Virus record (IMG/VR): IMGVR_UViG_3300045988_082110
Location: 1-54,351 of that record
Direction: 5' to 3' (one strand)
DNA: 54,351 nucleotides
DNA from: a virus
Position 1 is the first letter of the stretch. Every line of letters begins with the position of its first letter. The position numbers and the translations under genes were made by a program. Positions 5,726-51,330 of this stretch are shown piece by piece. The notes below the pieces were generated by a model. It did no database searches and was not told the DNA's origin. It was given only the letters and a program-made list of their open reading frames with translations.

Positions 5726-5766
5726 CAAAAAAGTATTGAATAAGTCGCATCCGATTAGACTAAATT

Positions 5767-12352: not shown

Positions 12353-12388
12353 CATATTATTAATGTTAATAGTATAAAAAGATAAGTT

Positions 12389-18999: not shown

Positions 19000-19003
19000 G
19001 TTG

Positions 19004-19044
19004 CAAATATAATATGAAAAGTGATAAAATGGATATTATCCGTT
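19004..19044 (-). promoter_or_regulatory. Late-type promoter: AACGGATAA-N24-TATATTTG
   Basis: On the plus strand, TTATCCGTT is at 19036-19044, followed by 24 nt and CAAATATA at 19004-19011. Confidence 0.65.
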
Positions 19045-32546: not shown

Positions 32547-32828
32547 TTAATGGGTAAAACAATAGGCTGCTGCCTCTGATTTCAACTCTGCCATGCTCTT
32601 CCTTCGATTCTGAGTCATCCACTCTTCCAACTCGCTCTTCTTGAAGTAGAGTCGGTTCACATTTGGTTTATAGCAAGGAATGATGCGGTTCCTGACGTTC
32701 TCTCTCACTCCTCTAACCGTCATACCAAGAATGATTGCAGCTTCATTAATGTTGAGCACATTCTTTGCAGCTATGAGCGAATACTGCTCTATGCGGTCTA
32801 GCTGCTCTTTAATCTCTGGGTCTATCAT
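32547..32828 (-). CDS. Excisionase/MerR-like helix-turn-helix DNA-binding protein
   Basis: LNINEAAIILGMTVRGVRENV...LYFKKSELEEWM. The start MIDPEIKE lies after the upstream stop. Confidence 0.6.
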   Translation of the reverse strand: MIDPEIKEQLDRIEQYSLIAAKNVLNINEAAIILGMTVRGVRENVRNRIIPCYKPNVNRLYFKKSELEEWMTQNRRKSMAELKSEAAAYCFTH

Positions 32829-32829
32829 A

Positions 32830-33690
32830 TCAGTTGAATTTGAGGGTTTGTTGACTGGCACTAGCTGCCTTGGCTGGCTCTGTTCTACCAGTGCCCTTAT
32901 TGCTGGGAGTGTTCTCCTGCTCTATCAAGGGGAGAATGCCCTTCGCTTTGAGTGATTCATATAGGAAGATTCTTCCTTTCGTTGCCCACTCGGTGTTGTA
33001 CTTCACATCATGCCGACCATCACTCCTTACGATGTCTACTGCTCTGCTGTGAACATATCCACCTTCTAAGAACTGGGCAAACAATATCCATTGACCTCTT
33101 ACCTTGTGCTGGATTCTCATAGACTCCAACTCCTTGTTTAACCTCATGGCACTCATTCCGTAGTCCTGAGCAATCTGAGTAACGGTCATAGTGGCATTAC
33201 TCTGCAAGATTTTGTCGTAGTAGCTGACCTTCGGCAGCATTTCGGTAATCTTGTTGCCGAGTTCCATGTTCGTCTTGCTGATAGTGAGGATTTGTTCCTG
33301 CTGCTTCTTATTTTCCAAAGCTAGCTGCTGTTTCTCCTCCTCAGCCTTGACCAGAGATTTGAGAGCTTCGAGATAGTTCTGAGGAACGGATGGCTTTTGA
33401 TGTTGCTCTTCCAGTTCCTTCCATCGTTTAATCAACTTGGCTCTCGCTTCATCGTTGAACTTGGTGGCGATGTAGAGACATTCTTCCTTGTTGAGGGAGT
33501 AGCAAGGTCTCGTCTCGCCTTTTTCATCTTTGTAATCAACCAGCTCAAACTTGCGCCCGTTGATATTTTCCCAAGCTGGCTCCATGTTTCTGATTGCTCT
33601 CATAACATTTTTGTGGAGCCTTGCAGTAATCTCTGCAATCTGTAGTGATGTCATTCTGTCACCATCTACAATAGTTGAAAGTTCATTCAT
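32830..33690 (-). CDS. Rha-family regulator fused to a KilAC/antirepressor C-terminal domain
   Basis: N-terminal MTSLQIAEITARLHKNVMRAIRNM, a coiled-coil middle region, and a C-terminal TVTQIAQDYGMSAMRLNKELE. Confidence 0.7.
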   Translation of the reverse strand: MNELSTIVDGDRMTSLQIAEITARLHKNVMRAIRNMEPAWENINGRKFELVDYKDEKGETRPCYSLNKEECLYIATKFNDEARAKLIKRWKELEEQHQKPSVPQNYLEALKSLVKAEEEKQQLALENKKQQEQILTISKTNMELGNKITEMLPKVSYYDKILQSNATMTVTQIAQDYGMSAMRLNKELESMRIQHKVRGQWILFAQFLEGGYVHSRAVDIVRSDGRHDVKYNTEWATKGRIFLYESLKAKGILPLIEQENTPSNKGTGRTEPAKAASASQQTLKFN

Positions 33691-33711
33691 AGGATTCCTC
33701 CTTCTTTATTA

Positions 33712-33909
33712 TTAGTAGAACATGACCTTATCGGTCTTAACTCCTCCGAACTCATTCAGGGCATCATGCCTGATGCTTTCGGATTGCTTGCTCTGACTTC
33801 TAAATGCAAGAGCGTTGAAGATTGTTTCTCTACAGCAACCATATCGCTCAGCAAGTTTTTTTCGTCCTTCAAGCGAAACTTTGATAATTTTTATCTTTTT
33901 TACTTGCAT
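33712..33909 (-). CDS. Small Cro-like HTH protein (65 aa)
   Basis: RKKLAERYGCCRETIFNAL. It is divergent from the CI-like gene. Confidence 0.5.
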   Translation of the reverse strand: MQVKKIKIIKVSLEGRKKLAERYGCCRETIFNALAFRSQSKQSESIRHDALNEFGGVKTDKVMFY

Positions 33910-33969: not shown

Positions 33970-33977
33970 CAAAGATA
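33970..33977 (-). promoter_or_regulatory. -7 box TATCTTTG for the early leftward operon
   Basis: Plus strand reads CAAAGATA, 60 nt upstream of ATG 33909. Confidence 0.55.
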
Positions 33978-34466: not shown

Positions 34467-34838
34467 TTAAAATGTGGTAGGTATGAAAAGATTATTTTTA
34501 GCTAGTTTTATGTTACTCTGTACATTTGTTGTATATCTTTATTATTCCAATACGATTTATTTTGTTAGTTAAACACCTGATTTATAAATAGTTATATATT
34601 TCTTCGTTTTTGATTAGTAACAAAATAGCAACAATGAAGTGTTAATCTTTGCAAAGTAACTAACTTGCCCACAACAAAGATAAGAATTAAATCTTATTCA
34701 CAATTAATTTTCAAAAAGACTTTAACTTAGATTAACATTGTATCATTTCGTATATCTAATGTATATCTATTTCCCTAAAAAATCAATTTCGTTTACATTC
34801 AACACTTTTTAGCATTTGGTGGTTTCAGAAAAAGTTTC

Positions 34839-34846
34839 TATCTTTG
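34839..34846 (+). promoter_or_regulatory. -7 box TATCTTTG with no ORF behind it
   Basis: Perfect TAnnTTTG. The next convincing CDS starts about 455 nt downstream. Confidence 0.5.
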
Positions 34847-36464: not shown

Positions 36465-36581
36465 ATGAGTGAATTATATTGGTTAGGTGTTTTAGGCAAC
36501 CTGAATGATTTAGGTGGGGCTATTGCTGTTTTATCATTTTTGGTATTTATAGCTTTAGGCTTCTGTTTTTTTTTTGTGTAG
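36465..36581 (+). CDS. Possible 38-aa TM peptide ending in a T10 run
   Basis: Hand translation gives MSELYWLGVLGNLNDLGGAIAVLSFLVFIALGFCFFFV. Confidence 0.35.
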   Translation: MSELYWLGVLGNLNDLGGAIAVLSFLVFIALGFCFFFV

Positions 36582-36609
36582 TGAAGATGATTTAGAACCA
36601 TCGACTTTT

Positions 36610-36837
36610 ATGAAAAAAATGTTTAAGGGTTCTATGTTTGCTATTGTGTTAGGGGTAGTTATGGCGATATTTATTCCTTCCCAAAAGAATCTGCTTATCA
36701 TCTATGGGGTAGGTGGCACTATTGATTATCTCAAAGAAAACAAGGATGCAAATAAGATTCCTGATAAGTGCATTAAGGCTCTTGACAAGTATCTTGATGA
36801 TGCGTTGAATGAAGATAAAGACAAAGATAAGGAGTAA
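36610..36837 (+). CDS. Small TM protein (75 aa from ATG; the track ORF starts at TTG 36574)
   Basis: MKKMFKGSMFAIVLGVVMAIFIP, followed by an acidic tail. Confidence 0.45.
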   Translation: MKKMFKGSMFAIVLGVVMAIFIPSQKNLLIIYGVGGTIDYLKENKDANKIPDKCIKALDKYLDDALNEDKDKDKE

Positions 36838-36839
36838 CT

Positions 36840-37118
36840 ATGGTATCTGAATCAACTAGATATTATCAGACTCACCCAGCAGCTAGGGCACGGAAGGCTG
36901 CCTACGATACAAAGTTCGAGTCTTCTCCTGCTCAGAAGGCTAAGCGTATGGTACTCGCCCGACACAACGCTGCCCATGATAAAAAGTATGGGGCAGCTTC
37001 TCGCAAGGGCATGGATGCTAGCCATACACGTTCAGGAATTAGGTATAAGCCATCATCGGTGAATCGTGGTTCCAAGACGGATATGGCTGGGGATAGAAGA
37101 GCGAGAGGCGGTCGCTGA
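36840..37118 (+). CDS. Basic hypothetical protein (92 aa)
   Basis: ORF track. Confidence 0.45.
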   Translation: MVSESTRYYQTHPAARARKAAYDTKFESSPAQKAKRMVLARHNAAHDKKYGAASRKGMDASHTRSGIRYKPSSVNRGSKTDMAGDRRARGGR

Positions 37119-37240: not shown

Positions 37241-37549
37241 TTATCCTTCCTCTTCCGACATCTGTCTCAACTTCTCGGTGAGGGCATTGTGAACCTCACG
37301 CTTATCGTCAAGAGTGACGGTCTGTAGCTTAGGGCAGTTGAACTCTAGTATCTTGATGAATGATGCTACCTTATCCTTCGGCTCGCACTTATACCAAGCT
37401 GCCATGAAATCATCCCATGCCTCTCTAGAAAAGTCGGCACACAACTCACGAAACTCCTTGTTGATAGGAGATTCGTAACCTTTCTTCTTACCTCCAGTCT
37501 TTGCCCGACCTTTCTCGAACTGACCTTTTGTATTTCTATCTACTGCCAT
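37241..37549 (-). CDS. DUF5681-like protein (family often found next to terminases; possible small terminase)
   Basis: MAVDRNTKGQFEKGRAKTGGKKKG resembles the G.F.KG.SGNP.GRPKG N-terminus. The start is set at ATG 37549, behind a late promoter. Confidence 0.5.
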   Translation of the reverse strand: MAVDRNTKGQFEKGRAKTGGKKKGYESPINKEFRELCADFSREAWDDFMAAWYKCEPKDKVASFIKILEFNCPKLQTVTLDDKREVHNALTEKLRQMSEEEG

Positions 37550-37568: not shown

Positions 37569-37609
37569 CAAAGATAGTAATTATTCGGCAAACGGAAACT
37601 TTATCCGTT
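37569..37609 (-). promoter_or_regulatory. Late-type promoter: AACGGATAA-N24-TATCTTTG
   Basis: On the plus strand, TTATCCGTT is at 37601-37609, followed by 24 nt and CAAAGATA at 37569-37576. Confidence 0.65.
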
Positions 37610-37627
37610 AACTCACCTACCTAAATA

Positions 37628-37668
37628 AACGGATAAAATACGAATCTCGGATGGTATCAGTATCTTTG
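37628..37668 (+). promoter_or_regulatory. Late-type promoter: AACGGATAA-N24-TATCTTTG (giant-ORF operon)
   Basis: The 9-mer is at 37628-37636, followed by 24 nt and the box at 37661-37668. The ATG is at 37701. Confidence 0.65.
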
Positions 37669-37700
37669 TACCATTATTAATAATTTTAATTTTCATATAT

Positions 37701-38366
37701 ATGATAGGTGCATTAATAGGTGCTGGGCTTGGTCTTGCAAGCAGTATTGCTGGCGGTATAGCTAACCGCAAGGTGAGAAAAAAGCAGGAGCAGATGATTG
37801 CTCAGCAGCAGAGAGAAAATCAGGCATGGTATGATAGAAAGTATAATGAAGACCCTACCAAGCGTGCTGATACGGTTCGATTGCTCACACAGATGCAGGA
37901 GCAGATTAAGAACAGAAACAAGGCAGCTAAGGGTAGACAAGCGGTGATGGGTGGTACGGAAGATTCCACTACTGCGGTAAAGGAGGCGAACAACAAGACT
38001 CTTGCTGATACTACCTCACAGATTGTGGCTGCTAATGATGCCCGAAAGGATAACATTGAGCAGCAGTATATGAACAGAAAGAACCAGTTGCAGAACCAGC
38101 AGATGAGTATTGACGCTGAGAAGGCTGCTGATACTGCCAATGCGGTTGCTGGTGTGGCTGGTACTGCTGCCAATATCGCTGCATCGCTTGATAGTGGTGC
38201 TGGTGGTGCGAAGAAGGCACCGAATATGAATGTGACTCAGGAGCAGTTGAATGGTATCGCTAAGGACTCAAATGATGTTCTTGGCTTGAAGGCTAAGGCT
38301 ACGGCTCTTCCTTCTGAGGGTGACTTGAATAGCCTTGGGGCTAAACTTCAAAAGATTAAAGCATAA
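37701..38366 (+). CDS. Internal virion/DNA-pilot-like protein (Gly-rich hydrophobic N-terminus, Gln-rich coiled coil)
   Basis: MIGALIGAGLGLASSIAGGIANRK followed by Q/N/A-rich helices. This composition resembles ejection or pilot proteins. Confidence 0.5.
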   Translation: MIGALIGAGLGLASSIAGGIANRKVRKKQEQMIAQQQRENQAWYDRKYNEDPTKRADTVRLLTQMQEQIKNRNKAAKGRQAVMGGTEDSTTAVKEANNKTLADTTSQIVAANDARKDNIEQQYMNRKNQLQNQQMSIDAEKAADTANAVAGVAGTAANIAASLDSGAGGAKKAPNMNVTQEQLNGIAKDSNDVLGLKAKATALPSEGDLNSLGAKLQKIKA

Positions 38367-38370
38367 GCCT

Positions 38371-39459
38371 ATGAAAGCATCAGATATGTTACGAAACAAC
38401 AATGGCTTGAAGACAACACAGAGTGTTCTCAATAAGCAGCAGAGTGGGGTGGATGCCGCTCAGAAGGTGGCACAGACTCAGGCTCCAGTCTTCACCCAGC
38501 AGCAACTTGATGCGGCTGGCAAGAAGGTTGACCAGATGAATGCTGCCACTCCTCAGAATGAAACACCTACGATGAAGGCGGCTAGAGAGAAGACTATCGC
38601 TACTCAGCAAGCTATCGCCAATGGTGTAGATGTGAATCAGGGTGCGCCAAGTGATGAGGAGGATAAACCATCTGTCCCTATCGTGAAGAAGGAGGAGCCT
38701 AAACCTCAGCCTAAGCAGTTGTCTTATGCTGATATGTATAAGATGCTGAATCCTGAACTGAATGAGACTGCTGAGCAGAGGGCGAACAGAGAGAAGAAGG
38801 AACGTGCCAAGGCTCGTATCGCTGCTACTGGTGATGGTCTTCGTGCGCTCGCCAATATTTTCTTTGCTACGAATGGTGCCAAGGTGGTACACAATCCTGA
38901 GTCGGATATGACTAAGGCGGTGAATAAACGCAAGGCTTATATGGATGCTCAGAGAGAGAAGAATCGGGCATCATGGCTGGCAGGGTATCAGAGGGCACTC
39001 GCTCTTGATGAGGAAGCTAGGAAGAATAACCTGACTCTCGCTGAGCAGATGAGGTATCACGATAATATGGATAGAGTCAATAGAGCAAAAGCCATGTTAG
39101 ACCAAATGAGGATAGCAAAGCAAGATGAATACAATAAGGGTAAATTAAGTAATCAGGAGTCTGCGAACAAAGAATCTGTTCGACATCATAAAGAGCAGGA
39201 AAGTATTAGTAGGAAGAATGCCAACGCTAATGTGACTAGAGCACAAAAGGCAGGGAAAAATAAAGGTGGTTCTTCTAAAGAAAACTATAATAAAACTCTC
39301 GCTGGTTTAACTACTAATGACCCTAATGGAGTAAGAGCGGTTACTAGGAGTTTGAAACGTGATGGTGTTCCTCAAAATGCACAGACAATAGTAGAGGCTT
39401 ACAGAACACGGAAGGGTTCTTCTTCATCTAATGGTAGAACACTTCATGGAATAAAATAA
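38371..39459 (+). CDS. Lys/Gln-rich hypothetical internal protein (362 aa)
   Basis: The first ATG after the TTG-started track ORF, 4 nt after the upstream stop. Confidence 0.5.
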   Translation: MKASDMLRNNNGLKTTQSVLNKQQSGVDAAQKVAQTQAPVFTQQQLDAAGKKVDQMNAATPQNETPTMKAAREKTIATQQAIANGVDVNQGAPSDEEDKPSVPIVKKEEPKPQPKQLSYADMYKMLNPELNETAEQRANREKKERAKARIAATGDGLRALANIFFATNGAKVVHNPESDMTKAVNKRKAYMDAQREKNRASWLAGYQRALALDEEARKNNLTLAEQMRYHDNMDRVNRAKAMLDQMRIAKQDEYNKGKLSNQESANKESVRHHKEQESISRKNANANVTRAQKAGKNKGGSSKENYNKTLAGLTTNDPNGVRAVTRSLKRDGVPQNAQTIVEAYRTRKGSSSSNGRTLHGIK

Positions 39460-39466
39460 TTATAAT

Positions 39467-42400
39467 ATGGCTACAAGAAAAGAGATTGCACAGAATCAAA
39501 AGATTCTATATGATGATGCAGTTGCAAACAATATGTTTCAGGCTGCTGTACCTAGCTTTAAGGAGTTTCAGAAGCGACTCGAAGGTCAGGGGTATCAGAA
39601 AATGGTGTATGATAACTACAAAAAGCACAATGTGAGAGGAAAGGGATTTAATAATCTCAATGAGTTCCGTGGTGCTTTTGGTGGTTCTTTCTATGCTGAT
39701 GAAAATAAAATTGGTGTATCGGCTGGGGCAGCAGCTATCTCGGCTAGTGCTCAGCAGACAAAGAACAATGCTGGCAGATACAATAGACTGAAACAACGCA
39801 AGCAGAAACAGCAGAAGGATTTCGGTCGTGTGAACTTGGGTACACATCAGACTCCTTATGGTGGTGATGCAAACAATGTGGTGAAGGATGATTTTGCTTA
39901 CAATCCTGAGACTGGCAAGACTGGCGCATACGTTACCTCGGACAATGAGAATGCTTATTCTCTTCCTGAAGCTGAGCAGATGCAAGCTATTCTTGACAAG
40001 CAGAACGATGCCTATCAGGTAGCGGTAGATACTGGCGAGATTCCATCTGCATTTGATGTTCGTGACAAGAATGGTAACTATGACTTGCAGGAGAACATCG
40101 GCAAGAATGGAACCTACCTTACTGAGGAGGGTGCTCAAAAGCAGTTTGACAAGAAACTGGCTGATGCCTATGCTCGAAAGAAGGAGATTGAGGCTCTTAT
40201 CGCTGAGGATAATCGGCAACACGGAAATCCTTTGCTCTCTTATGGTGCTAGTATCGGTGCAAGTAACGGAAGAACTGCTGAGCAGAGTGACTATAGAAAT
40301 AAGTTGGCAACCTCTCTTTCTCTGGTTAAGCAGCAGATTGGTGCGCTGGAAGCGGTGAAACAATATCCTACAAGTAGCTGGGGTGAGGATGCCTTGAAGG
40401 CTCTTGACAATACTGCATTTACTGCAAAAACATGGGATTTCGGTCTTACTGACTTCGCTACTATGGGGCAGATGGAACGTATCAAGACAAAGATGGATAA
40501 CAATATTCCTCTCTCAGGTTCTGATAAGATGCTCTTGAAGAGTAAACTGGGTGCGGATGCTGCTGCGGCTCTTGAAGACGAGAAGATGGGTAACGTCTAT
40601 CGTTGGACGAAGATTGCAGGGCAGAGTCTCCCATTTATGGCTGACTTTTTCTTGACTGGCGGTTATGGTGGTATTACTAAGGGCATCAGTCGTGGAGCCT
40701 TGAAGATTGCTGCTAAGCGTGGCATGGGCAAGGTGAGTGCTGCGGTCTTGAAGAATACTGGTATTGTGATTGGTGATATTATCGGCTCGTATGCGATGGC
40801 TGGAACTGAGCAAGCGTTGAAGACTGGTGCTGACATCATGCAGCGACATCTTGGTAATCTGTATCAGGATGAGAAGGGTGATTATAAGTTTGGTACTTTC
40901 GATGAGAATGGAAATCTTCTGCATGAGGGTGGTGAGTCTATTGGTACTGCTCTCTATAAGGGTATGACCTCTGCTATGGTAGAGAACTATACTGAAAAAC
41001 TCTTCGGTCACAACTATGGTATCAAGAAGGGTGCTGTCAACTTTATGGAGAAACATGGTATGAATGCTTCTGCTGAGTTCTTCAAGAATATCGGCAAGAG
41101 TGGATGGTATACCAATTCCAAGAAGTGGATGGAGAAGTTCGGTATCAATGGTTTCGCTGAGGAAGTTATGGAGGAGGAAATTGGTATTCCTCTTCATGCC
41201 TTGCTGGATGGTGAAGGTAAGGTTAGCGACCTTCTTGATGCTAAGCAGCAACTCGACATCATCGGTGGTATGGCTATCTCGGTCGGTTCTATGTATGCGA
41301 TGGGTGCTGGCTCCCGACCAGTAAAAGGTATCTACAATCGTGCTCAGTATTACCGATTCCGCAACAAGGTGAACGTGGCTGATAGTGATGCTCAGAACCT
41401 TATGGGCGATAACTGGGCAGACATCAAGGATAAGATAGACAACGCAACCAACGAGCAGATGGGTGGCGTGCTGGCTGATATTCTCAGACAGAGAGATACC
41501 ATGACCAAGGAGCAGATTAATGCTGCTGTTAACTATGGTGTCAACCTGATGAAGATGCGTGGCTACAATATTGCCAAGACTGCTGAAATGAATGCCAAGG
41601 AGATAACCAATGAGCCTACAACACCTGAGGAGCAGCATCAGGCAGATATTGACAACGCTTATTCTGAGGGGCATGATGCTGATGATGCAGACAAGCATGA
41701 TATTCAGATTCAGCAGGAAGACCAGATGAAGACTCTTGCAGCAGCATTGGGTATCTCTGAGCAGCAGCTATCTGCCATGAGTGACGAGGAACTGGAATCC
41801 ATGACTGGGCAGGATGATAAACTTGACCAAGCTATCTATGACTACCAGTTGTCTTCTGCCCGATACCAAGGTGTGGTTGATGATGCACAAGACAAGGTTG
41901 ACCTTGCTGCTCATCAGGCAGAGCAGAGAGTGGATATGTACACAGACCAGAGTCGTAGTTCTGTCCGTAACGCTACTATCAAAGCATTAGGTGGCTTGGA
42001 AGACTATGGTGTTTATATTATCAGTGGTAATATTGCTACTCATGATGATGGCTCCATTGATGTAAGCAATAGCGATGGTATGATTCTATACTATGACCCG
42101 ACAACGAATAGTGTAGAACATGCTGATGCGTTGATGTTCGCTGAACTGGGTGAAGAACTCCCTGCTGATGATGTGAAGGCTCAGGCAGTAGCTGATGCAA
42201 AAGAGAATGCTATCAAGGAAGTGGCTGGCATCATTGATGGAACCGTTGAAATTGGCTCCCAGTTCAATGTGACTGATACTGATGGTACTGAACATACCTA
42301 TGAGGTGTTGGCTGACTATGGTGATGGTACTGCTGCTATCTCTATAGATGGTAACGTGGTGGAGAATCCTTATTCGCTTGCAGACTTGCAGCAGATGAAA

Positions 42401-45400
42401 GACTTGGAAGACCAGAAGAGACTGGAAGCTGCCAAGGCTGAGCGTGAGCAGATGGAAAAAGAACGTGCTGCCCAGCAGAATCAGGAGACAGAAGAGACTC
42501 AACCTTCGTTTGACTTCAATCAGATTCTCAATGATAATGGTAACGTGGTGCTCGTTGATGTGCTCGACAAGGATGGTAATACCAAATATCCTGACTCTAG
42601 ATTGTTCCTCATTCGTGATGCTGGTGCCAAGGCTAAGGTAGTTGAGTTGAAGAGTGATGGTACTATTGTTCCTCATGCTGTGAACAAAGAAGATGTGGCA
42701 ACTATCTCTTCTATGTCGCTCGATGAATACAAACAAGCTATGCCTGAATCCTCAACAATAGAGGATAATAGTGGAGAAGAATCTGATGAGGATTCTCAGT
42801 TGGCAAATCTCGGTTTGCCTAAAGGTAGCGAGATATGGATGAGTGGCGATGGATTCGGAAGACCAAAGGAAAACACTCTATCAAAAGTTGTTGGTATTGA
42901 TGAGCAGGGCAGTATAATCCTTGAAGATAAGGATGGTAAAAAGTGGTCTGCATCATTTGATTATATCAACAACCATCGTGAGCTTCCACCTTTGGATGAG
43001 AATACCAATATCGTTAATGAGGAGAATAATCAATCTGAATCAAATGCTGAGGAGAACACTCCTGCTCCTGAGCAGACTCCTGCTATTACTCTTGAAGATG
43101 GAACCATTGTTCCTATGCTGGAGGATGGCAATCCTGACTTCTCGAAGCTGACTGCCGCACAGACTGCTGAGTTGTATGATACTCAGTTCGGTGAGGATGC
43201 AGATAGTATCGTATCTGGATATGTGTCTGACGCAAAGAAGGCACTCGACAAGGCTAGCAACATGACCGTGAAAGGTAAGACTTTCGTGGAACAGAAGGCT
43301 GCCAAGGATGCCAAGGAGAAGGCTATTGCTGATGCTCAGGCGGTTTATGATTCTGCTATCGCTATTCGTGATGCTTACAACGAGCGACAACTGGCTAAGG
43401 TGGAAGATACTGCTGAGGGTAGAAAGGAACTCATTGAGAAGGCAAGAAGAAAGTTCGCTCGCTTGAAGAGTGCTGTTAAGGATGATGCTGAGGCTGTATC
43501 ACAACTCTACCGAGAAACTATCGGTTCTCTCCTTCATCGTCTGTATGATAGTACTGGTATTGACGTGACTGATACAACTCCGCTTACTGCTGAGGAGTAT
43601 GTGGCTAGCAACCTCGGTGCTCACTCTCTCAACTTAGAGGGAACAGAGACAAGCAAGGGTGTTAAGCAGGAGACTGGATTGAGCAGAGAAGACTTTGCCA
43701 AGACTCAGTTGCTCGCTGCTGATGGCAAGGGAACTACTATTGATGCGCTCGTTCACAGCTTGTGGGAGAATCGTCCATCCAACCTTGAATCACTCGACAC
43801 TCAGGATATTCGTAACGCACTTATCGGTGTACTCAATAGCGGTTTTAAGGCATCGGAAGCAAGGAATTTTGTTGAAAATATTCGCATTGCTCAGGCAGAG
43901 AACATACTTGAAGAGCAGAAACGTGCTCAGGAGAATGCAGCCTATGCTGAGCAGCACAAGGCTGAGCCAGAGGCCGAGTTGAAGGCGAAGTCGGATGAAA
44001 AGGCTGAGTTGAAGGCGAAGTCTGAGGCGAAGTTGGATAATGAATCGTCTAATGAATCTAATGATTTGTCTAATGAAACGGATAATGAGAAGATAAATGA
44101 CAATATAAATGATAACATAAATGTTCCTGAGGATGCTACTGATGAGAATCCTTTAGGCGCACAGCGTGATGAATCTGACCTTCCTTTCTCTGCTAAGGAG
44201 AATGGTATGCAGCAGACAACTGCCGTGCGTGCTGCTGACGTGGAGAAGAATAAGGTGAATGATATGAAGGTTGTTGACAATATCGTAGGGCAGAAGACTC
44301 GCAAGGCTTTCGAGAGACTGGCTAAGATGATGGGTGCTAACATTCAATGGCAGTACTCTGACAAGTTGGGCAACGGCTGGATTCAGGAGACCAAGGATGC
44401 CGATGGCAACGTTCATCGTACCATCTTCATCACTCTTGACTCTTCTATCACGGAAGGTGCTCAATTTATCTTCGGTCACGAAATGACCCACCAAATCAAG
44501 AACCTGAACCCTGCTGCATACAATGAGTTGACTCAGCTTGTGCTTGATACCTATGGCTCTGATGCCTTCGACAAGGCGGTGGATGAGACCATGCAGAGAT
44601 ATTCTGATGCTGGATTCTCTGGACGTGCTAGAGATTACTATGCTGAGGAGGTTGTTGCTGATTCGGTAGGTGAAATGATTCGTGACTTGAACCTTGCTCA
44701 CACTCTAGCCATGAAGATGTCTCATCCTCTGCTCGCTGCTATCCATGAGATATTGCAGAAGATTAAGTTGGCATTCTTTGGTACTGAGTATAGCGATGTG
44801 ACCAAGAACATCATCCGCTCTATCGAACAAGCCTACGTGAAGACTGCCAATGGTCAGGTAACGAATTCTGAAACTGGCGAAGATGTTGCCTTCTCTCTCC
44901 GTCAGAAACCTGAACCTAAGAAGAAGGGTGTCGGCTACAAGGTGTTCGTGCTAAAGGATGGCAAACTCTATCCACCAATGGTAGCGAACCCTGATGGCGC
45001 TGCTACTCCAGTTGGTGTATGGCTCGATGCTGATGCGGCTCCTATTGCAGGAGAAAGCAAGACTGGCAGACCTCAGGTTAAGCAGGGCGGCAAGGGAACA
45101 CAAGGCGGTAGCGGTAAGCTAGCCTATAGACCAGGCTGGCATCTTGGTGTAGTGCCTTATGCTATTCAGTTCAATCGCAAGGATGCTGAGGGAAACAAGA
45201 CTCTCTTCCCTAAGAACTTCGTCTTCGCTGAGGTGGAGTATGCTGCTGATGTTGATTATCAGGAGGAAGCTCGCCAAGAGGGTATCAATCCATCGGGCAA
45301 GTATCAGCATTCATTGGCTGGTTTGAAACATCTGCCTACTGATGGATATTATATGTATCGTACCAACCCGAACCCTGAGACTGACCCTTGGGTGATTACT

Positions 45401-48400
45401 GGTGCGATGAAGGTGAACCGTATCTTGACCAGAGCAGAGCAAGCGGAACTTGTGAAGAATGCCGGACGTGAACCTCAGCAGATTCAGGAGGGCGATATTG
45501 TTACTGATGATGTTGTGAACAGCATCAATCAGGAGATAGCTGCTGCTCCTAAGTTCTCGTTGAAGGTGTATCATGGTAGCGGTGCTGACTTCACAGAGTT
45601 TGACTTCGACCACATGGGCGAGGGTGCTGGCTCCCAAGCATTCGGTTGGGGTGGCTATGTTACCTCTTCAAAGAAGATAGGAAAGGACTATGCTCGGTTA
45701 GGTAAGGAGACTGGCGGTGACTATCAGTATATGGGTGACACGAAACTTACCTCAGAACAAGCAAGGGTTCTTGCTGTTTTTGTAGGTTTACCTGCATACA
45801 AGGAATATTCATCTATGAAGGAAGGAGTTGGTGCTTATATTAAGTCTTTGCGTACCTTGGAACAGAAGGGTGGTTTTATGGCAAAACATGCTGGAGAACG
45901 TATCAAGGTACTGGAGAGTGTTCTCCCTAAACTTGACAAAGTGAGCAGATATGATTTTGCGCACAAGTCTCGTAATCTCTATGAGGTTGATATACCTGAG
46001 GATAATGGCAGCAACTATATTGAGTTCTACGAAGATGCTACCCCTGAGTTTAAAGAACAGATTAAGAGTGTGTTGGCAAATGGTCTCCCTTCTGAGTTGA
46101 AGAAAATGCCTGAGTACAAAGAGGCTGAACGGAAATTCTATGAGGAGAACGGAACAGATGAATCGTTTGAGAAGTCTCTTATTGATGATGCTCTATTTGA
46201 GTTGGAACGTAGAAAAAGTAATGGCGATGCTTATAATGCGTTGTCTGTTGCTGTTGGTGATAAACTGGCAAGCAAAATTCTTTCTTCGCTCGGATATACA
46301 GGTATCAAGTACCCTGCTGGCACCATAATGGGTGGCGCTGAGGAAAATGATACCAACTATGTTATCTTTAAGCCTGAGGATATGAAAATCACAGAGCATA
46401 CCAAGTTCTCTCTCCGTTTGAAGTCTGCTATTGAGGAGACTGAAACCAATCCATCTGACGCACAGAAAGAGAGTGGCAACTACAAGAAGGGACACATCAA
46501 GTTCGGTGGCTACGATTACACTATAGAAAATCCGAAGGGTTCTACTCGCTCAGGCAAGGATGCCGATGGGAAAGAATGGAAAGTTATCATGCACGATACC
46601 TATGGTTATATCCGTGGTAAGTTTGGCAAGGATGGTGACCATTTGGATATGTTCATCAATGACAAAGCAGACCTTGATAATTGGAATGGTGATGTGTTTG
46701 TCGTTGACCAAGTGAATCCTGATGGCTCGTTTGATGAGCATAAGGTAATGTATGGCTATGACTCCATGGATGATGCCAAAAAGGCTTATCTCGCCAACTA
46801 TAGCGATGGTTGGCAAGGTCTTGGAAATATTACTGGAGTAAGCAAGGATGAGTTCGACAAGTGGCTTGATACGAGCAATCGTAAGCTAAAGCCATTTGCA
46901 GACTATGCTAAAGTAAAGTTCTCGTTGAAGGATATAAAGCCAGTAGGTGTTGGTGCTTTCGGAAATATATACAACCAGTTCCGTGGCAATGCCAAGGCTG
47001 CAATCGAGTTCTTGAAGAAGGTTCGTGGTGGAGAAGCTGTCGGTGCTCTTCATCACAAGGATATTGGTGATATTGATTTGGTTTGGGGCAAAGAAGGAAC
47101 TGGACATAGTGATGGCTATGGTCTTTCTAAACTTGTGAAGTATCATCCTGAGGTTCTTGATAATTTGCAGGAGATTCTGAATGATATGCGTGTAGTTTCA
47201 AGCAGTAAGAATCGTGTAAACTTGGAAAGTGAAACCCATAAGGCTGGTGTTCGTCTTACTTGGGATGGAGAAAGAAAATCTTGGTTGTTGACTGCATTTA
47301 AAAAGGAAACTTCGGCAAGCGACAAGAGGACAGACACTGCCGCTACTTCGTTGGAAGGTGACACCGCTCTCTCCCAAACCGAAGGTTCTGCTGCAAAGAT
47401 AGACAATTCTTCTGAAACTGCCAAGGAAAATGGCGAAAAAGTTGATGTTGAGGCTCCAAAAACTTTCGATGAGTTCCTGAATCATCCTTCTTTGAAGTTC
47501 TCTATCAAGAATGAGCAGCAGAGAAAAGCGGCTGAGGATGCTTATATCGTGGGGAATACCCGATTCTCCTTGCGCTATGACCAGTTTGAGCATGACCTGA
47601 ACCAGTGGAAGAAGGATAATAATCTGCCTAAGGATGCACAGAGGCCAACCATCCCACATCGCAATGCTGGAGAGAGTGCCGTTGACTTCCTGAGGAGAGT
47701 AGACGAGTACCGCAAACAGATGGCTCTGTGGAAGACTGCTCCAACCTACGAGCAGCATCTTTTGAGCGATGATACTGCCCTTGGAGAGTTCAACCGAGAG
47801 TTGCAGCGTGGTTCTGTGCTGAAACGTATCGCCTTCCAAGATAGTATGCTGGCTATCCGCAAGGCTCAGGAAGCTATCATGAAGGAAGTGGGTGTTGACC
47901 GCCTGAACATGGCTGAGGATGCCTATACTGCCGAGAACCGCAGTCATGGCAAGGGAAAGAACGAGTTTGAGGAGTACAACAATGAGTTCTTGCAGCCATT
48001 GAGAAAGGCTTATCATCAGATGAAGAAGATACTGGGTGACAGCTATGATAATGTCCGTATCTACATGATGGCTAAGCATGGTTTGGAACGTGATGCTCAG
48101 ATGGCATTCAAGAAGTCTTTGGAAGCTGATTATGAGGACGTGGCTCAGAGAAGTGCGGCATACAAGGCTTACAAGGGCGATATGAACCGTATTATCAATG
48201 ATAGCGATTTGGAGTTTGGAAGAGTGGATTTCACTACTTGGAGACAGAGAGATAACGCTCTCAGAACGAAATACTCTCCTTCCTATATGGACTATCGTTA
48301 TGATGAGAATGGTATTGCCTACGATTATTCAGGTTTGTCTGCTCTCTATGACGGCTCAGACTTTGAGGAAGCTGCCTACAAACTGGTAAAGGATATTGAG

Positions 48401-51157
48401 GATAAGTATGTAACCGAGACTCACAACCTCTGGGATGCAACGAATGCGGCAACCAAGAAGATTCTCCGTGATGGCTACAAGGCTGGAATGATGAGCAAAG
48501 ATACCTATCAGTATGTGCGTGATATGTATAGCCATTATATTCCTCTCCGTGGCTGGGATGGCACTACTGCCGACCAAGTATGGGACTATATTGGTGGCGG
48601 CAAGGGTGCTTTCAATCAAACCTTGAAGAAGGCACACGGACGTACCTCTATCGCTGATGACCCTATCGCATACATCGAGAATATGGCAGAGAGTGGAATC
48701 CTGCTGAACAACAAGAACTGGGTGAAGCAACACCTGATGCTCTTGGCTCAGAATCATCCAACCTCTCTTCTTACCCTGAGCAAGGCTTGGTACGTGAAGA
48801 GTGTGGATGATAATGGCAACGAAGAGTGGATTCCTGCTACACCTCAGATTACTTCTCAGATGGATAGCAATCAGGTGAAGGCTGCCATTGATGCTTTCGA
48901 GAAGAAGATGGAGAAGATGGCTCAGACTGGCGATGCTACCCAAAAGAGAGACGGACTGAATATAGCCTATCCTCAGACTCATAGCGAGGAGAGAGAGCAT
49001 GAGGTAAGAGTGATGAAGGATGGCGAGGAGTACGTTATCTACGTGAATGGTGACCCTCAGTTGGCTCAGGCGATGAACAATACTAGAGCACACCGAGTAA
49101 GAGAGATTCAGAGCGGCAAACTTGATAGGGCTGCTGCTTGGTTGGGCAGAAAGATGGCTGCTGCCTATACCAGTCTTTCACCTCTCTTCATCCCTTCCAA
49201 CTACTTCCGAGACCTGACCATGACGCTGGCATCTACCGCTATTCGTGAGGATGGCAGATACAACTATCTGCTCAGAAAGAATCTGGCTACCTCTTGGAAT
49301 CTCGGTTTCATGCTGAGAGACTATCAGAACGGCAAGTTGAGAGATAAGGTAAACAACGGAAACGCTACACCAAAGGAACAGATGTTCTATGACTTCATGA
49401 TGAATGGTGGCGAAACTGGCTTTGTCTCTTCGCTTGATGTGGAAGACTTGAAGAAGAAATTCAAGAATGACTTGAAGGATTTGGATAGATGGAAGGCGAA
49501 CCCAGTAAAGGTAGGGCATACCATCATGGATAGTATCGAGTTCCTGAACAGAATGATTGAGGATAGTAACCGATTTGCGGTTTACATGACCTCTATTCAG
49601 TATGGACGTTCCATTGATGAGGCGGTGAATGATGCCAAGGACGTGACCCTGAATTTCAACCGAAAGGGTACAGGCGAATATGGCTGGCAGATGATTAGAA
49701 ATCTCTATCTCTTCATCAACCCAGCGGTACAGAGTTTGCAGACATTGGGTGCGCTTGCCAAACATCATCCTTTCAAGTTTACGGCTGTTACTGCATCGTG
49801 GTTGGCGAGTGGCGTGCTGGTTCCTATCGTTAACGCTGCTCTGATGAGTATGTTGGGTGGTGATGATGATAATAAGGATAAGTACTGGCAGTTCACAAAG
49901 TGGGATAGACGAAACAACCTGATTATGTGGGTTCCTTTCACTCATGAGTATGTGAAGATTCCGCTTGCTCAGGAGTTCCGTGCCTTTTATGGAATAGGTG
50001 ATATGATTGCATCCAAGATGATGGGTGGCGAGTTGGCTGAGGAGAGTTGGAGTCAGTATGCAGAAGACTTGCTCGGTCAGGTAGTGGATATGCTTCCGCT
50101 TGACCCTACTGGCTATGATGGCAATATTGCTGTCAGTCTGATGCCGAATGCTATTCGTCCAGTCTTTGAGTTGGCTTTCAATATTGACTTCACTGGTAAG
50201 CCATTATTCAAGGACACAGAGTATAACAAGTATGACCCTAACTTCACCAAGGCATACGTGGGAACTCCTGATTGGTTGGTGCGTGCTTCCAAAATGGTTA
50301 ACTCAATCGGAAACGACTATCCTGATGTGCAGCAGAATAGCATAGATGCTTTCGGTGACCCAAGATACAATCTGAATAACCCTGCCGTGGTTGACCATGT
50401 ATTGTCTTCTTATCTCGGTGGTGCTTACACCATGGGCAGTCAGGTGCTCGGTTTGCTTACCAAGTCACTCAATGACCCGAAGGAAATCAAGGTGGCTGAT
50501 ATTCCATTATTCAGCAAGTTCGTCAGCAATCCTGATGATAGACCGGTTACTAAGAAACAAGGTGATGAGTTCTGGGATATGAAGGAGAATCACGACCGAG
50601 CAGCCAATACCCTGAGCAAGTTGAAGAAACAAGCTAAGGTGGATGGCGATTACTCTATGCTGGAGCGGTTCTACGGCTCTGAGGAGTATAAGCAGTACAA
50701 GCAGGATGATGCGAAGGTGAAGAAGTATGAGGAAGACAAGAAGAAGGAACGTGCTGAGGAGAGTGGGGAGGAGTATAGACCTCACAAGTTGAATGCCGAG
50801 GATATTTACAAGGCTCATGCTACTCCGAAGGATGATTTCGAGGACTTGAAGCTGAAACAACTCTACACCAAATTGAACGGATTCAAGACTTCCTATGACC
50901 TCTTGGTTGATACGGCTCCTAGTCAGAGCGATGGCTACTACAACACCAACAAGGCTGCTATTGATGCCATTGACGAGATTTCTCTTGATAAGCAGGAAAT
51001 ATCCGAGTTAAAGAAAGGTTTCTTGGATGATGGCAAGGATGCCTACAACGCTGAGGACATGAAACAGATTCGTGAACTTAGAAAGAAGATTCTTTCCGTG
51101 CTGGAAAAGGCTAACAAGGTAGTTGTGGCTAACCAGAAGGCGAAGGCTGAGAAGTAA
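39467..51157 (+). CDS. Giant polyvalent virion protein (3,896 aa)
   Basis: A single uninterrupted ORF of 11,691 nt containing several enzyme-like modules (see the sub-features below) and a C-terminal hydrophobic helix (about 49780-49860). Confidence 0.85.
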   Translation: MATRKEIAQNQKILYDDAVANNMFQAAVPSFKEFQKRLEGQGYQKMVYDNYKKHNVRGKGFNNLNEFRGAFGGSFYADENKIGVSAGAAAISASAQQTKNNAGRYNRLKQRKQKQQKDFGRVNLGTHQTPYGGDANNVVKDDFAYNPETGKTGAYVTSDNENAYSLPEAEQMQAILDKQNDAYQVAVDTGEIPSAFDVRDKNGNYDLQENIGKNGTYLTEEGAQKQFDKKLADAYARKKEIEALIAEDNRQHGNPLLSYGASIGASNGRTAEQSDYRNKLATSLSLVKQQIGALEAVKQYPTSSWGEDALKALDNTAFTAKTWDFGLTDFATMGQMERIKTKMDNNIPLSGSDKMLLKSKLGADAAAALEDEKMGNVYRWTKIAGQSLPFMADFFLTGGYGGITKGISRGALKIAAKRGMGKVSAAVLKNTGIVIGDIIGSYAMAGTEQALKTGADIMQRHLGNLYQDEKGDYKFGTFDENGNLLHEGGESIGTALYKGMTSAMVENYTEKLFGHNYGIKKGAVNFMEKHGMNASAEFFKNIGKSGWYTNSKKWMEKFGINGFAEEVMEEEIGIPLHALLDGEGKVSDLLDAKQQLDIIGGMAISVGSMYAMGAGSRPVKGIYNRAQYYRFRNKVNVADSDAQNLMGDNWADIKDKIDNATNEQMGGVLADILRQRDTMTKEQINAAVNYGVNLMKMRGYNIAKTAEMNAKEITNEPTTPEEQHQADIDNAYSEGHDADDADKHDIQIQQEDQMKTLAAALGISEQQLSAMSDEELESMTGQDDKLDQAIYDYQLSSARYQGVVDDAQDKVDLAAHQAEQRVDMYTDQSRSSVRNATIKALGGLEDYGVYIISGNIATHDDGSIDVSNSDGMILYYDPTTNSVEHADALMFAELGEELPADDVKAQAVADAKENAIKEVAGIIDGTVEIGSQFNVTDTDGTEHTYEVLADYGDGTAAISIDGNVVENPYSLADLQQMKDLEDQKRLEAAKAEREQMEKERAAQQNQETEETQPSFDFNQILNDNGNVVLVDVLDKDGNTKYPDSRLFLIRDAGAKAKVVELKSDGTIVPHAVNKEDVATISSMSLDEYKQAMPESSTIEDNSGEESDEDSQLANLGLPKGSEIWMSGDGFGRPKENTLSKVVGIDEQGSIILEDKDGKKWSASFDYINNHRELPPLDENTNIVNEENNQSESNAEENTPAPEQTPAITLEDGTIVPMLEDGNPDFSKLTAAQTAELYDTQFGEDADSIVSGYVSDAKKALDKASNMTVKGKTFVEQKAAKDAKEKAIADAQAVYDSAIAIRDAYNERQLAKVEDTAEGRKELIEKARRKFARLKSAVKDDAEAVSQLYRETIGSLLHRLYDSTGIDVTDTTPLTAEEYVASNLGAHSLNLEGTETSKGVKQETGLSREDFAKTQLLAADGKGTTIDALVHSLWENRPSNLESLDTQDIRNALIGVLNSGFKASEARNFVENIRIAQAENILEEQKRAQENAAYAEQHKAEPEAELKAKSDEKAELKAKSEAKLDNESSNESNDLSNETDNEKINDNINDNINVPEDATDENPLGAQRDESDLPFSAKENGMQQTTAVRAADVEKNKVNDMKVVDNIVGQKTRKAFERLAKMMGANIQWQYSDKLGNGWIQETKDADGNVHRTIFITLDSSITEGAQFIFGHEMTHQIKNLNPAAYNELTQLVLDTYGSDAFDKAVDETMQRYSDAGFSGRARDYYAEEVVADSVGEMIRDLNLAHTLAMKMSHPLLAAIHEILQKIKLAFFGTEYSDVTKNIIRSIEQAYVKTANGQVTNSETGEDVAFSLRQKPEPKKKGVGYKVFVLKDGKLYPPMVANPDGAATPVGVWLDADAAPIAGESKTGRPQVKQGGKGTQGGSGKLAYRPGWHLGVVPYAIQFNRKDAEGNKTLFPKNFVFAEVEYAADVDYQEEARQEGINPSGKYQHSLAGLKHLPTDGYYMYRTNPNPETDPWVITGAMKVNRILTRAEQAELVKNAGREPQQIQEGDIVTDDVVNSINQEIAAAPKFSLKVYHGSGADFTEFDFDHMGEGAGSQAFGWGGYVTSSKKIGKDYARLGKETGGDYQYMGDTKLTSEQARVLAVFVGLPAYKEYSSMKEGVGAYIKSLRTLEQKGGFMAKHAGERIKVLESVLPKLDKVSRYDFAHKSRNLYEVDIPEDNGSNYIEFYEDATPEFKEQIKSVLANGLPSELKKMPEYKEAERKFYEENGTDESFEKSLIDDALFELERRKSNGDAYNALSVAVGDKLASKILSSLGYTGIKYPAGTIMGGAEENDTNYVIFKPEDMKITEHTKFSLRLKSAIEETETNPSDAQKESGNYKKGHIKFGGYDYTIENPKGSTRSGKDADGKEWKVIMHDTYGYIRGKFGKDGDHLDMFINDKADLDNWNGDVFVVDQVNPDGSFDEHKVMYGYDSMDDAKKAYLANYSDGWQGLGNITGVSKDEFDKWLDTSNRKLKPFADYAKVKFSLKDIKPVGVGAFGNIYNQFRGNAKAAIEFLKKVRGGEAVGALHHKDIGDIDLVWGKEGTGHSDGYGLSKLVKYHPEVLDNLQEILNDMRVVSSSKNRVNLESETHKAGVRLTWDGERKSWLLTAFKKETSASDKRTDTAATSLEGDTALSQTEGSAAKIDNSSETAKENGEKVDVEAPKTFDEFLNHPSLKFSIKNEQQRKAAEDAYIVGNTRFSLRYDQFEHDLNQWKKDNNLPKDAQRPTIPHRNAGESAVDFLRRVDEYRKQMALWKTAPTYEQHLLSDDTALGEFNRELQRGSVLKRIAFQDSMLAIRKAQEAIMKEVGVDRLNMAEDAYTAENRSHGKGKNEFEEYNNEFLQPLRKAYHQMKKILGDSYDNVRIYMMAKHGLERDAQMAFKKSLEADYEDVAQRSAAYKAYKGDMNRIINDSDLEFGRVDFTTWRQRDNALRTKYSPSYMDYRYDENGIAYDYSGLSALYDGSDFEEAAYKLVKDIEDKYVTETHNLWDATNAATKKILRDGYKAGMMSKDTYQYVRDMYSHYIPLRGWDGTTADQVWDYIGGGKGAFNQTLKKAHGRTSIADDPIAYIENMAESGILLNNKNWVKQHLMLLAQNHPTSLLTLSKAWYVKSVDDNGNEEWIPATPQITSQMDSNQVKAAIDAFEKKMEKMAQTGDATQKRDGLNIAYPQTHSEEREHEVRVMKDGEEYVIYVNGDPQLAQAMNNTRAHRVREIQSGKLDRAAAWLGRKMAAAYTSLSPLFIPSNYFRDLTMTLASTAIREDGRYNYLLRKNLATSWNLGFMLRDYQNGKLRDKVNNGNATPKEQMFYDFMMNGGETGFVSSLDVEDLKKKFKNDLKDLDRWKANPVKVGHTIMDSIEFLNRMIEDSNRFAVYMTSIQYGRSIDEAVNDAKDVTLNFNRKGTGEYGWQMIRNLYLFINPAVQSLQTLGALAKHHPFKFTAVTASWLASGVLVPIVNAALMSMLGGDDDNKDKYWQFTKWDRRNNLIMWVPFTHEYVKIPLAQEFRAFYGIGDMIASKMMGGELAEESWSQYAEDLLGQVVDMLPLDPTGYDGNIAVSLMPNAIRPVFELAFNIDFTGKPLFKDTEYNKYDPNFTKAYVGTPDWLVRASKMVNSIGNDYPDVQQNSIDAFGDPRYNLNNPAVVDHVLSSYLGGAYTMGSQVLGLLTKSLNDPKEIKVADIPLFSKFVSNPDDRPVTKKQGDEFWDMKENHDRAANTLSKLKKQAKVDGDYSMLERFYGSEEYKQYKQDDAKVKKYEEDKKKERAEESGEEYRPHKLNAEDIYKAHATPKDDFEDLKLKQLYTKLNGFKTSYDLLVDTAPSQSDGYYNTNKAAIDAIDEISLDKQEISELKKGFLDDGKDAYNAEDMKQIRELRKKILSVLEKANKVVVANQKAKAEK
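44264..44836 (+). other. Zincin-like metallopeptidase module in the giant ORF
   Basis: FIFGHEMTHQIKNL (HEMTH at 44477-44491), with downstream AEEVVADSVGE. Confidence 0.6.
45554..46396 (+). other. ADP-ribosyltransferase-like (H-Y-E class) module in the giant ORF
   Basis: KVYHGSGADFTEFDFDHMGEGAGSQAFGWGGYVTSS, then NLYEVDIPED. This resembles the HGS ... G.G.Y ... E pattern of PARP/DT-type ARTs. Confidence 0.4.
46406..46906 (+). other. Family I inorganic-pyrophosphatase-like module in the giant ORF
   Basis: YTIENPKGS...TYGYIRGKFGKDGDHLDMFI...DEHKVMYGY parallels E. coli PPase [20 protein letters not shown]. Confidence 0.55.
46919..47326 (+). other. Possible barnase/EndoU-type nuclease module in the giant ORF
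   Basis: DIDLVWGKEGTGHSDGYGLSKLVKYHPEV ... WLLTAFKKE. The assignment is from memory of polyvalent-protein nuclease domains and is low certainty. Confidence 0.3.
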
Positions 51158-51322: not shown

Positions 51323-51330
51323 TATATTTG
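51323..51330 (+). promoter_or_regulatory. -7 box TATATTTG
   Basis: Perfect TAnnTTTG, 83 nt before ATG 51414. Confidence 0.5.

Follow-up and report, generated by a model that had tools for sequence, protein, structure and literature searches.

A fixed-distance upstream element beside the host -7 box at putative late promoters of a Bacteroidales prophage family

The subject of this report is a two-part sequence element found at six places in a 54,351-nucleotide (nt) stretch of viral DNA, here called the window, which is the whole of the IMG/VR record IMGVR_UViG_3300045988_082110 (positions 1-54,351). At each place a conserved upstream element stands at a set distance from a TAnnTTTG box, the -7 element of Bacteroidota promoters. 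Judged by its sequence, the phage is temperate, podovirus-like and hosted by Segatella (Prevotella) copri. Relatives with an identical gp14-like protein are integrated beside yjbQ and an MFS transporter gene, whose exact protein sequences carry the public names Segatella copri or Prevotellaceae; because these prophage neighbours are of the S. copri type, we take the window to come from a temperate-type phage whose host belongs to the S. copri complex. No GenBank phage was matched when the window region was compared by megablast, and a protein search returned three cultured relatives, annotated as Bacteroides temperate phages that share the capsid: BF1-TP2, BKO1-TP3 and BS-TP4. BKO1-TP3 is available in B. 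koreensis HM3 and BS-TP4 in B. salyersiae BG8 (PMC12694917).

The six sites lie where the original prediction had placed them (2304-2344, 19004-19044 and 37569-37609 on the minus strand; 5767-5807, 12312-12352 and 37628-37668 on the plus strand), and are listed here with the upstream element at the greater length established below.

2304-2347, minus strand: putative late promoter of the tail-fibre unit; element ATAAATGGATAAA (2335-2347), 23-nt spacer, box TATCTTTG (2304-2311); a 238-amino-acid (aa) gene starts at 2290
5764-5807, plus strand: putative late promoter of the scaffold/capsid/portal operon; element ATTAACGGATAAA (5764-5776), spacer, box TAATTTTG (5800-5807); ATG at 5839
12309-12352, plus strand: putative late promoter of the lysis cassette; element ATAAACGGATAAA (12309-12321), spacer, box TATCTTTG (12345-12352)
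19004-19047, minus strand: putative late promoter of the 147/973/280-aa virion unit; element GTTAACGGATAAT (19035-19047), spacer, box TATATTTG (19004-19011)
37569-37612, minus strand: putative late promoter, left member of a back-to-back pair; element GTTAACGGATAAA (37600-37612), spacer, box TATCTTTG (37569-37576)
37625-37668, plus strand: putative late promoter, right member of the pair; element ATAAACGGATAAA (37625-37637), spacer, box TATCTTTG (37661-37668)

By gene content all six sites head virion or lysis units, as had been proposed, with capsid, portal, endolysin, gp14-like, fibre and structural-protein genes downstream, and it is from this content that we infer the late timing of the units. 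Behind the 5767 site lie a 513-aa SU10-type major capsid protein (SU10_MCP, by Pfam on a relative) and the portal (9413-11449, plus strand; phrog_156, and P22_portal in relatives), and behind the 12312 site the endolysin (12654-13202; phrog_181). The 37628 unit (37701-51157) opens with a T7_gp14-like gene (37701-38366) and continues with a 362-aa gene and a 3896-aa polyvalent protein bearing ART-PolyVal, PBECR1, DNA methylase and LPD38 domains. Its divergent partner at 37569 (minus strand) would drive a single 102-aa DUF5681-like gene (37241-37549), the homologue of which in BF1-TP2 is annotated DUF5681. The 2304 unit holds a fibre gene with collagen-like GDK repeats (near 1290) that crosses the window ends, and the 19004 unit the 147/973/280-aa set, whose large protein has a BS-TP4 homologue annotated "putative structural protein".

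The pattern AAYGGATAA-N24-TAnnTTTG is matched six times in the window and not once in any of 100 dinucleotide-preserving shuffles, and the 24-nt spacing claimed for all six sites is exact. Alignment of the sites extends the conserved block to a 13-mer, (G/A)TWAACGGATAAA, or (G/A)-T-(T/A)-AACGGATAA-(A/T), whose 3' end lies 23 nt before the T of the -7 box in every case; the spacers of the six copies are unrelated to one another. Counted across the window, AACGGATAA occurs in six perfect copies, five of them at promoters and one in coding sequence at 44077 (plus strand), within the 3896-aa open reading frame, where it is not a match to the full two-part pattern. The site at 2304 carries AATGGATAA in its place, the variant already recognised there, and in most close relatives this tail-fibre site reads AACGGATAA.

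The -7 element itself is exact at six of six sites, and at none of them does a TTG, as expected of a -33 element, lie 17-23 nt upstream of the box. Six other boxes in the window do have a TTG at 18-22 nt: those of the early-control region at 33977 (-), 34839 (+), 33927 (+) and 34682 (-), and those at 53363 (-) and 51323 (+). Two of these serve as contrasts.

33970-33977, minus strand: early-region -7 box; TTG 20 nt upstream, no upstream element
34839-34846, plus strand: early/middle -7 box; TTG 20 nt upstream, no upstream element; heads the RNase H unit

The boxes that had been said to lack the 9-mer are real (33970-33977 and 5718-5725 on the minus strand; 34839-34846, 11797-11804 and 51323-51330 on the plus strand), and the suggestion that the host -33 region is replaced or overlapped holds good, the element abutting the place where a -33 motif would stand. 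No terminator-like hairpins follow closely on the late boxes, and the window has no more terminator-like sites than shuffles do; antitermination was set aside on these grounds. Overall, the sequence supports the view that the six sites are promoter-like and built on the Bacteroidota -7 box.

Searching IMG/VR with the capsid protein gave 497 relatives, of which the best 80 (87-98% identical) were taken with 10-kilobase flanks. These close relatives contain 256 perfect 9-mers, of which 228 are followed by a -7 box after exactly 24 nt and none by a box at another distance. Variation was measured at promoters located through the downstream gene rather than the motif, counting unique sequences: the core AACGGATAAA shows zero variation among these gene-anchored promoters, and the mean minor-allele fraction is 0.04-0.05 in the element, 0.07-0.22 in the spacer and 0.10-0.25 in the upstream flank. 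Ahead of the 147-aa operon, the 3' end of the upstream gene Zn87 (19036-19299) shares sequence with the 9-mer, which reads AAC GGA TAA (N-G-stop) in the window, within TTA ACG GAT AAA in relative L290 and as AAA CGG ATA in relative L294; because the same word is thus read in three frames of the upstream gene across relatives, selection acts on the DNA. At the lysis promoter, the TAA of the 9-mer doubles as the stop codon of a DUF7841 gene (11835-12320). The back-to-back pair is kept in relatives L001-L006. The central CGG is retained at five of six sites of the window clade, across hundreds of relatives; the close relative L205 mixes CGG, CAG and TAG in one genome, as several distant prophages also mix variants.

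A more distant set consisted of 80 prophages fetched from species-representative genomes by capsid alignment alone, without use of the motif. Their capsids are about 50-64% identical to that of the window, and their hosts include Prevotella, Bacteroides, Phocaeicola, Rikenellaceae, Muribaculaceae, Porphyromonadaceae and Butyricimonas, among others. Exact AACGGATAA is rare in these prophages and the two-part architecture is common. At their scaffold-operon promoters the 9-mer 24 nt upstream of the box is AAAAGATAA (the commonest), AATAAATAA, AACAAATAA, AAGAAATAA, AAAAGATAT, AACGGATAA or AATGGATAA, always with G-T-(T/A) directly 5'. Of 48 unique scaffold-operon promoters, 44 have the 13-mer at a distance of exactly 23 nt from the box and none has it clearly elsewhere; across all 336 plus-strand boxes in the distant loci, the element is found at 23 nt in 88 and at every other distance in four or fewer. 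The architecture is syntenic with that of the window, and the spacers are completely different. The family consensus is GTWAAAAGATAAA-N23-TAnnTTTG (profile G T W A A A A G A T A A A), drawn from 44 representatives with pairwise identities below 75%. Most element positions carry 1.2-1.7 bits of information, while W and the first variable position have 0.4; over the 22-nt spacer the value is close to zero, with no -33 signal, and a C follows the -7 box in 73% of representatives. The 9-mer originally singled out is part of a longer conserved block, the 13-mer, and the exact word AACGGATAA is a clade variant of the family-wide word AAnRGATAA.

Among the cultured relatives, sites of the form GTAAA(A/T)AG(A/T)TAAA-N23-TAnnTT(T/C)G are present five times in BKO1-TP3 and five times in BS-TP4, where they precede the scaffold/capsid, portal, lysis, p147-homologue and gp14-like units. 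The N23 architecture was not found in BF1-TP2 (capsid 42% identical), which is therefore usable only as a single negative for phyletic profiling. In BF1-TP2 (loci L420 and L421) another word, CATAACGATAAA(AA) (reverse complement TTTATCGTTATG), recurs beside late gene starts, sometimes just downstream of a -7 box, and resembles the window's TAACGGATAAA minus one G.

BF1-TP2, about 39150-39230, 60990-61100 and 42150-42170: recurrent word CATAACGATAAA

An exact scan of 2.9 million viral contigs in IMG/VR for GTWAAAAGATAAA-N23-TAnnTTTG gave at least 120 matches. Family structural genes lie nearby in 107 of the 120 among the matches listed; most of the other 13 listed matches are in AT-rich contigs (G+C content 18-39%) that show no family genes in the vicinity, and there the word seems, by eye, to fall in coding sequence. 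A scan for the AACGGATAA form shows the same family restriction. Taken over viral contigs and prophages, these sequence data support an element specific to one phage family. On the host side, genome-wide start sites of B. thetaiotaomicron yielded the -7 and -33 motifs and an unrelated -10/-30 motif (PM2), with no comparable element (PMC7366714), and a start-site survey of S. copri likewise reports -7 and -33 motifs and no comparable element (10.1101/2024.04.05.588293). We found no literature linking TAnnTTTG to phage late promoters or to UP elements, nor any description of a late-promoter class for Bacteroidota phages, and the paper that describes BKO1-TP3 and its cultured relatives contains no promoter analysis and not the word "promoter". 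As far as we have found, the element and its architecture have not been described before.

Several further features were observed at these promoters. The ATG of the 147-aa gene (18999; window 18997-19011, minus strand) lies 4-5 nt past the -7 box (TATATTTGCAACATG), and the same close arrangement of box and start recurs in BKO1-TP3 at about 16232-16246 (TACTTTCGTACTATG); with an ATG 4 nt past the box, the leader of the 147-aa mRNA would be very short or absent, making it leaderless or nearly so. One and the same word, ATTATTAAT(AAT), directly follows the box at three of the six late promoters (2286-2303, minus strand; 12353-12366 and 37669-37685, plus strand) and is also kept in relatives; it may be a start-site or leader signal. 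Within the tail-fibre promoter's spacer (2305-2336, minus strand) is a 14-pair inverted repeat, also kept in relatives, in which AAAGATAGG pairs with the -7 box CCTATCTTT. At the scaffold promoters of L210-L289 and of BKO1-TP3 (36825-36970), the divergent terminase-operon box (CAAAGTTA on the late strand) lies 11-12 nt upstream of the element; the window clade carries about 27 additional base pairs (bp) in this place. With the terminase box fixed so near, a protein bound to the late element would lie over the opposite promoter's spacer, and the arrangement might then work as a two-way switch.

The original prediction had concluded that the element implies a phage-encoded activator or sigma-like factor. 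The activator-type half of that claim fits the element, whereas the sigma-like half does not: neither the scanned window genes nor those of the relatives gave a Pfam match to Sigma70 r2/r4 or another sigma-family domain, and since the downstream element is the host's own -7 box, a sigma-like factor is unlikely and was rejected. In Pfam and PHROG searches of about 50 window proteins, together with precomputed Pfam annotation of relatives, nothing matched sigma, MotA/AsiA, Ogr, RinA/ArpU, Mor/C or Q-like proteins. For the helix-turn-helix proteins at 32547-33909, suggested earlier for binding tests, no homologue was detected in BKO1-TP3, a phage with the same promoter architecture. Few non-structural proteins are common to the window and BKO1-TP3: NinB, VRR-NUC, a methylase, a MazG-like protein, p98/gp31, p151/gp49, p101/gp52 and p102/gp58; those weighed for the factor were p98, p151, p101 and the zinc-ribbon protein Zn87.

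19301-19597, minus strand: p98, small basic protein; last conserved gene of the early operon
5251-5706, minus strand: p151, first gene of the terminase operon, kept family-wide; expressed from the box at 5718-5725 (minus strand)
19036-19299, minus strand: Zn87, 87-aa zinc-ribbon protein (RFGRL...CxCxCG...SCGC), uncalled earlier; a gap of about 300 nt, marked "intergenic", in some relatives

The first of these, p98, has homologues in BKO1-TP3 (gp31) and BS-TP4 and none detected in BF1-TP2, which is without the element; it is thus present in all three element-positive genomes compared. Of 30 loci, 26 have a late element within the 400 nt that follow p98. Its family is very narrow, with 16 clusters in a set of 1.84 billion representatives, and the AlphaFold2 model of p98 (pLDDT 81) finds nothing below E = 0.1 in Foldseek against PDB. 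We regard p98 as the leading though weak candidate for the trans-acting factor, rather doubtful as an identification and offered as a lead rather than an assignment. The p151 model (pLDDT 90) is an all-helical two-repeat fold for which Foldseek against PDB and BFVD likewise found nothing below E = 0.1, and p151 is also present in BF1-TP2. Zn87 is 55% identical in diverged relatives, and its homologues, small proteins, are widespread among phages; the one in Bacillus phage MG-B1 bears the name "transcription factor". The zinc-ribbon module of Zn87 is common to PHROG "HNH endonuclease" families, and the homologues give weak CapR matches. Zn87 itself has no Pfam family match and no PDB sequence relative. 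As the factor it looked attractive, lying directly upstream of a late promoter, and was then down-weighted: it is absent from BKO1-TP3, BS-TP4 and BF1-TP2, and in L205, where AACGGATAA promoters are retained, the interval between p98 and the promoter is without it. From this distribution, Zn87 is probably an accessory insertion.

Overall, we believe, by somewhat better than an even chance, that the six sites are late promoters dependent on an activator: the -7 box would be read by host sigma-A, and a family-specific factor bound around -41 would replace the -33 contact. In such a model the host primary sigma factor would read the retained TAnnTTTG, and the 13-bp asymmetric element, (G/A)TWAACGGATAAA or family-wide GTWAAAAGATAAA, would stand where the -33 contact is missing. 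If the T of the box lies near -11, as counted from the published "-7" label, the 13-mer would span about -47 to -35, centred near -41. A sequence-specific protein of the family, made from an early or middle transcript, would bind the element as an oriented unit and touch polymerase through sigma region 4, the alpha subunit or both, supplying a -33-type contact, and the virion and lysis genes would stay silent until that protein accumulates. The site is asymmetric, has one orientation to the box and tolerates no change in distance, which favours a sequence-specific protein fixed against the holoenzyme; its confinement to one phage family favours a protein encoded by the phage. We infer the transcription starts, their late timing, and the existence, phage encoding and identity of such a factor. 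The narrower proposal that a protein family of new fold, restricted to these Bacteroidales temperate phages, with the narrow p98 family as one possibility, reads the oriented 13-bp box near -41 and so replaces the -33 contact is plausible to us, at rather less than an even chance.

At the same time, a number of observations weigh against an activator encoded by the phage. The terminase operon (5706 to 2364, minus strand; TerL at 2694-4910) starts from the box at 5718-5725 (minus strand) without a properly spaced element, and so the element does not govern all morphogenesis genes. The central triplet of the element is tolerant, which weakens the case for co-evolution of the site with a phage protein, and because variants are mixed within genomes the CGG of the window clade cannot alone prove a matching change in such a protein. 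Covariation of the triplet with a phage protein was considered as a test and set aside as confounded, given this tolerance within genomes and the physical linkage of the candidates to the promoters. The p98 and p151 models are confident yet without a recognisable DNA-binding fold, no candidate is assigned, and Zn87, the sole clear candidate of DNA-binding type beside a late promoter, is dispensable in relatives. Finally, the consensus AAAAGATAA(A) is A-rich and located at the Escherichia coli proximal UP subsite, so that contact by the alpha subunit without any activator would also fit.

That last point belongs to the strongest competing explanation, which we consider unlikely while giving it real weight: the element would be a UP-like site for the host alpha C-terminal domain, or the site of a conserved host DNA-binding protein, compensating for the missing -33 with no phage protein involved, and something else, for instance the copy number of the template or the loss of a repressor, would set the late timing. 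The proximal UP subsite of E. coli spans -46 to -38 with the consensus AAAAAARNR, and A-rich GTWAAAAGATAAA, in its inferred position, overlaps it; an architecture kept across several Bacteroidales families is what a conserved host reader would produce, and the activator search identified no protein. But conserved G, T and GAT at high information content, with zero tolerance in spacing, are unlike degenerate UP elements, and a reader of A-tracts would not select the CGG kept at most sites of the window clade. An element read by the host would also be expected in other Bacteroidota phages, whereas 107 of the 120 matches listed fall in one family, and the two host start-site surveys report no such motif. 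A different account, really a special case of the activator model, is that the holoenzyme is remodelled, with a small phage protein on sigma region 4 and a box-reading partner in the manner of AsiA and MotA, or, in another form, a phage protein that replaces sigma region 4 outright. A short, asymmetric, oriented site at rigid spacing to the host -7 box is typical of an element read by holoenzyme, the -33 motif is absent, and p98, p92 and p126, small family-specific proteins of unknown fold, lie at early/late junctions. The absence of any MotA, AsiA or sigma-domain match counts the other way, as does a box some 10 bp further upstream than the MotA box, and we judge this account improbable. The least attractive explanation, to which we give hardly any credence, is that the six copies are repeated DNA without regulatory role, spread by recombination or left by mobile elements, and beside -7 boxes by chance. 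The word does contain a TAA that is twice a stop codon (12318-12320 and 19036-19038); the unrelated spacers between fixed element and box, the persistence of the syntenic architecture with wholly different spacers in relatives with capsids about 50-64% identical, the occurrence of the element in all three reading frames and the empty shuffles all speak against it.

The proposed activator-dependent promoter has counterparts in well-studied systems and differs from each of them. It resembles class II promoters (CRP class II, and lambda cI at PRM), in which the activator site abuts or overlaps a weak or absent -35, is centred at -41 or -42 and lies at a fixed distance. Unlike theirs, the site here is asymmetric, GTWAAAAGATAAA having a single orientation to the box and none of the dyad symmetry of a dimeric activator's site; the promoter geometry is the -7/-33 of Bacteroidota, and the centre near -41 is here an estimate. 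T4 middle promoters, served by MotA and AsiA, also keep a host -10-type element, replace the -35-type element by an asymmetric phage box of the 9-bp class at rigid spacing, and drive a temporal class of phage genes, but the MotA box is centred about -30 and the present element near -41, MotA and AsiA homologues are lacking, and lineage and host phylum are unrelated. The late operons of P2 (Ogr), P4 (Delta) and 186 (B), and those of Mu under Mor and C, are likewise several operons without a good -35, there activated by a small phage protein. P2-type late control uses a zinc-finger activator of the Ogr/Delta family and dyad sites with their centre near -55, and the sites of Mu extend from about -30 to -55; the site here is asymmetric and nearer the box, and Zn87 has no Pfam link to Ogr. 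UP elements as a class are degenerate A/T-rich tracts at -40 to -60 of strong host promoters, read by the alpha C-terminal domain. The proximal subsite of the E. coli UP element shares the approximate position, the A-richness and the compensation for a poor upstream hexamer; the element here has stricter base conservation, including G/C positions, invariant spacing and restriction to one phage family. The canonical Bacteroidota sigma-A promoter (TTTG at -33, TAnnTTTG at -7, the former about 18-20 nt upstream of the latter) has the identical -7 box and the same preference for C after it, and differs in its -33 TTG, for which the six sites have a conserved 13-mer just upstream of that position. 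Promoters of phage alternative sigma factors (the SPO1 gp28 and T4 gp55 types) differ in that no sigma gene was found here and the downstream element is the host -7 box.

A few observations concern the genome at large. Between p151 and the large terminase lies a gene for a rhomboid-family membrane protein with a GxSG motif (4823-5302, minus strand), and the trio of p151, rhomboid and terminase is kept family-wide, including BKO1-TP3, BS-TP4 and BF1-TP2, an odd partner for a packaging operon. The polyvalent virion protein (39467-51157, plus strand) has 3896 aa here, against 4870-5105 aa in near-identical relatives and 5553 aa in BKO1-TP3, and its domain content must therefore be highly variable. 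At 34534-34536 the window lacks 2.5 kilobases present in relatives (L003, 4303-6835; L001, 6835), comprising three small genes and a tyrosine integrase, and the right edge of this gap is exactly the prophage/host junction of integrated copies; the window looks like an integrase-less derivative that arose by attachment-site recombination. A frameshift at 36466-36837 (plus strand) splits a gene that has 123 aa in relatives, leaving the membrane-like N-terminal part and the rest in different frames. The record is circularly permuted, with the tail-fibre gene spanning both ends (1-60 and 54290-54351) and the end junction inside a 21-nt tandem repeat coding for (LKSDVDT)n.

To our knowledge, very little is known of gene timing in phages of the Bacteroidota, hosts whose promoter grammar (-7/-33) differs from the E. 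coli model. The theme is a familiar one, in which late promoters keep the host's downstream element and swap the upstream element for an activator site, here in the Bacteroidota, where we know of no such phage late-promoter switch described. The element would define the late regulon of a very common gut prophage family, with its 497 IMG/VR capsid relatives and with prophages found in Segatella, Prevotella, Bacteroides, Phocaeicola, Rikenellaceae and Muribaculaceae. It offers a simple sequence rule for annotating late operons and a handle for finding the switch protein, and the cultured BKO1-TP3 and BS-TP4 make the late-promoter model directly testable. It could also supply promoter parts with tight off and on states for engineering gut Bacteroidales. 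If a protein of new fold does read the 13-bp box, no earlier late-gene switch would be on record for phages of Bacteroidota, and the element would provide a ready-made, host-orthogonal pair of activator and promoter for engineering gut Bacteroides and Segatella, with natural specificity variants in AAAAG, AACGG and AATAA.

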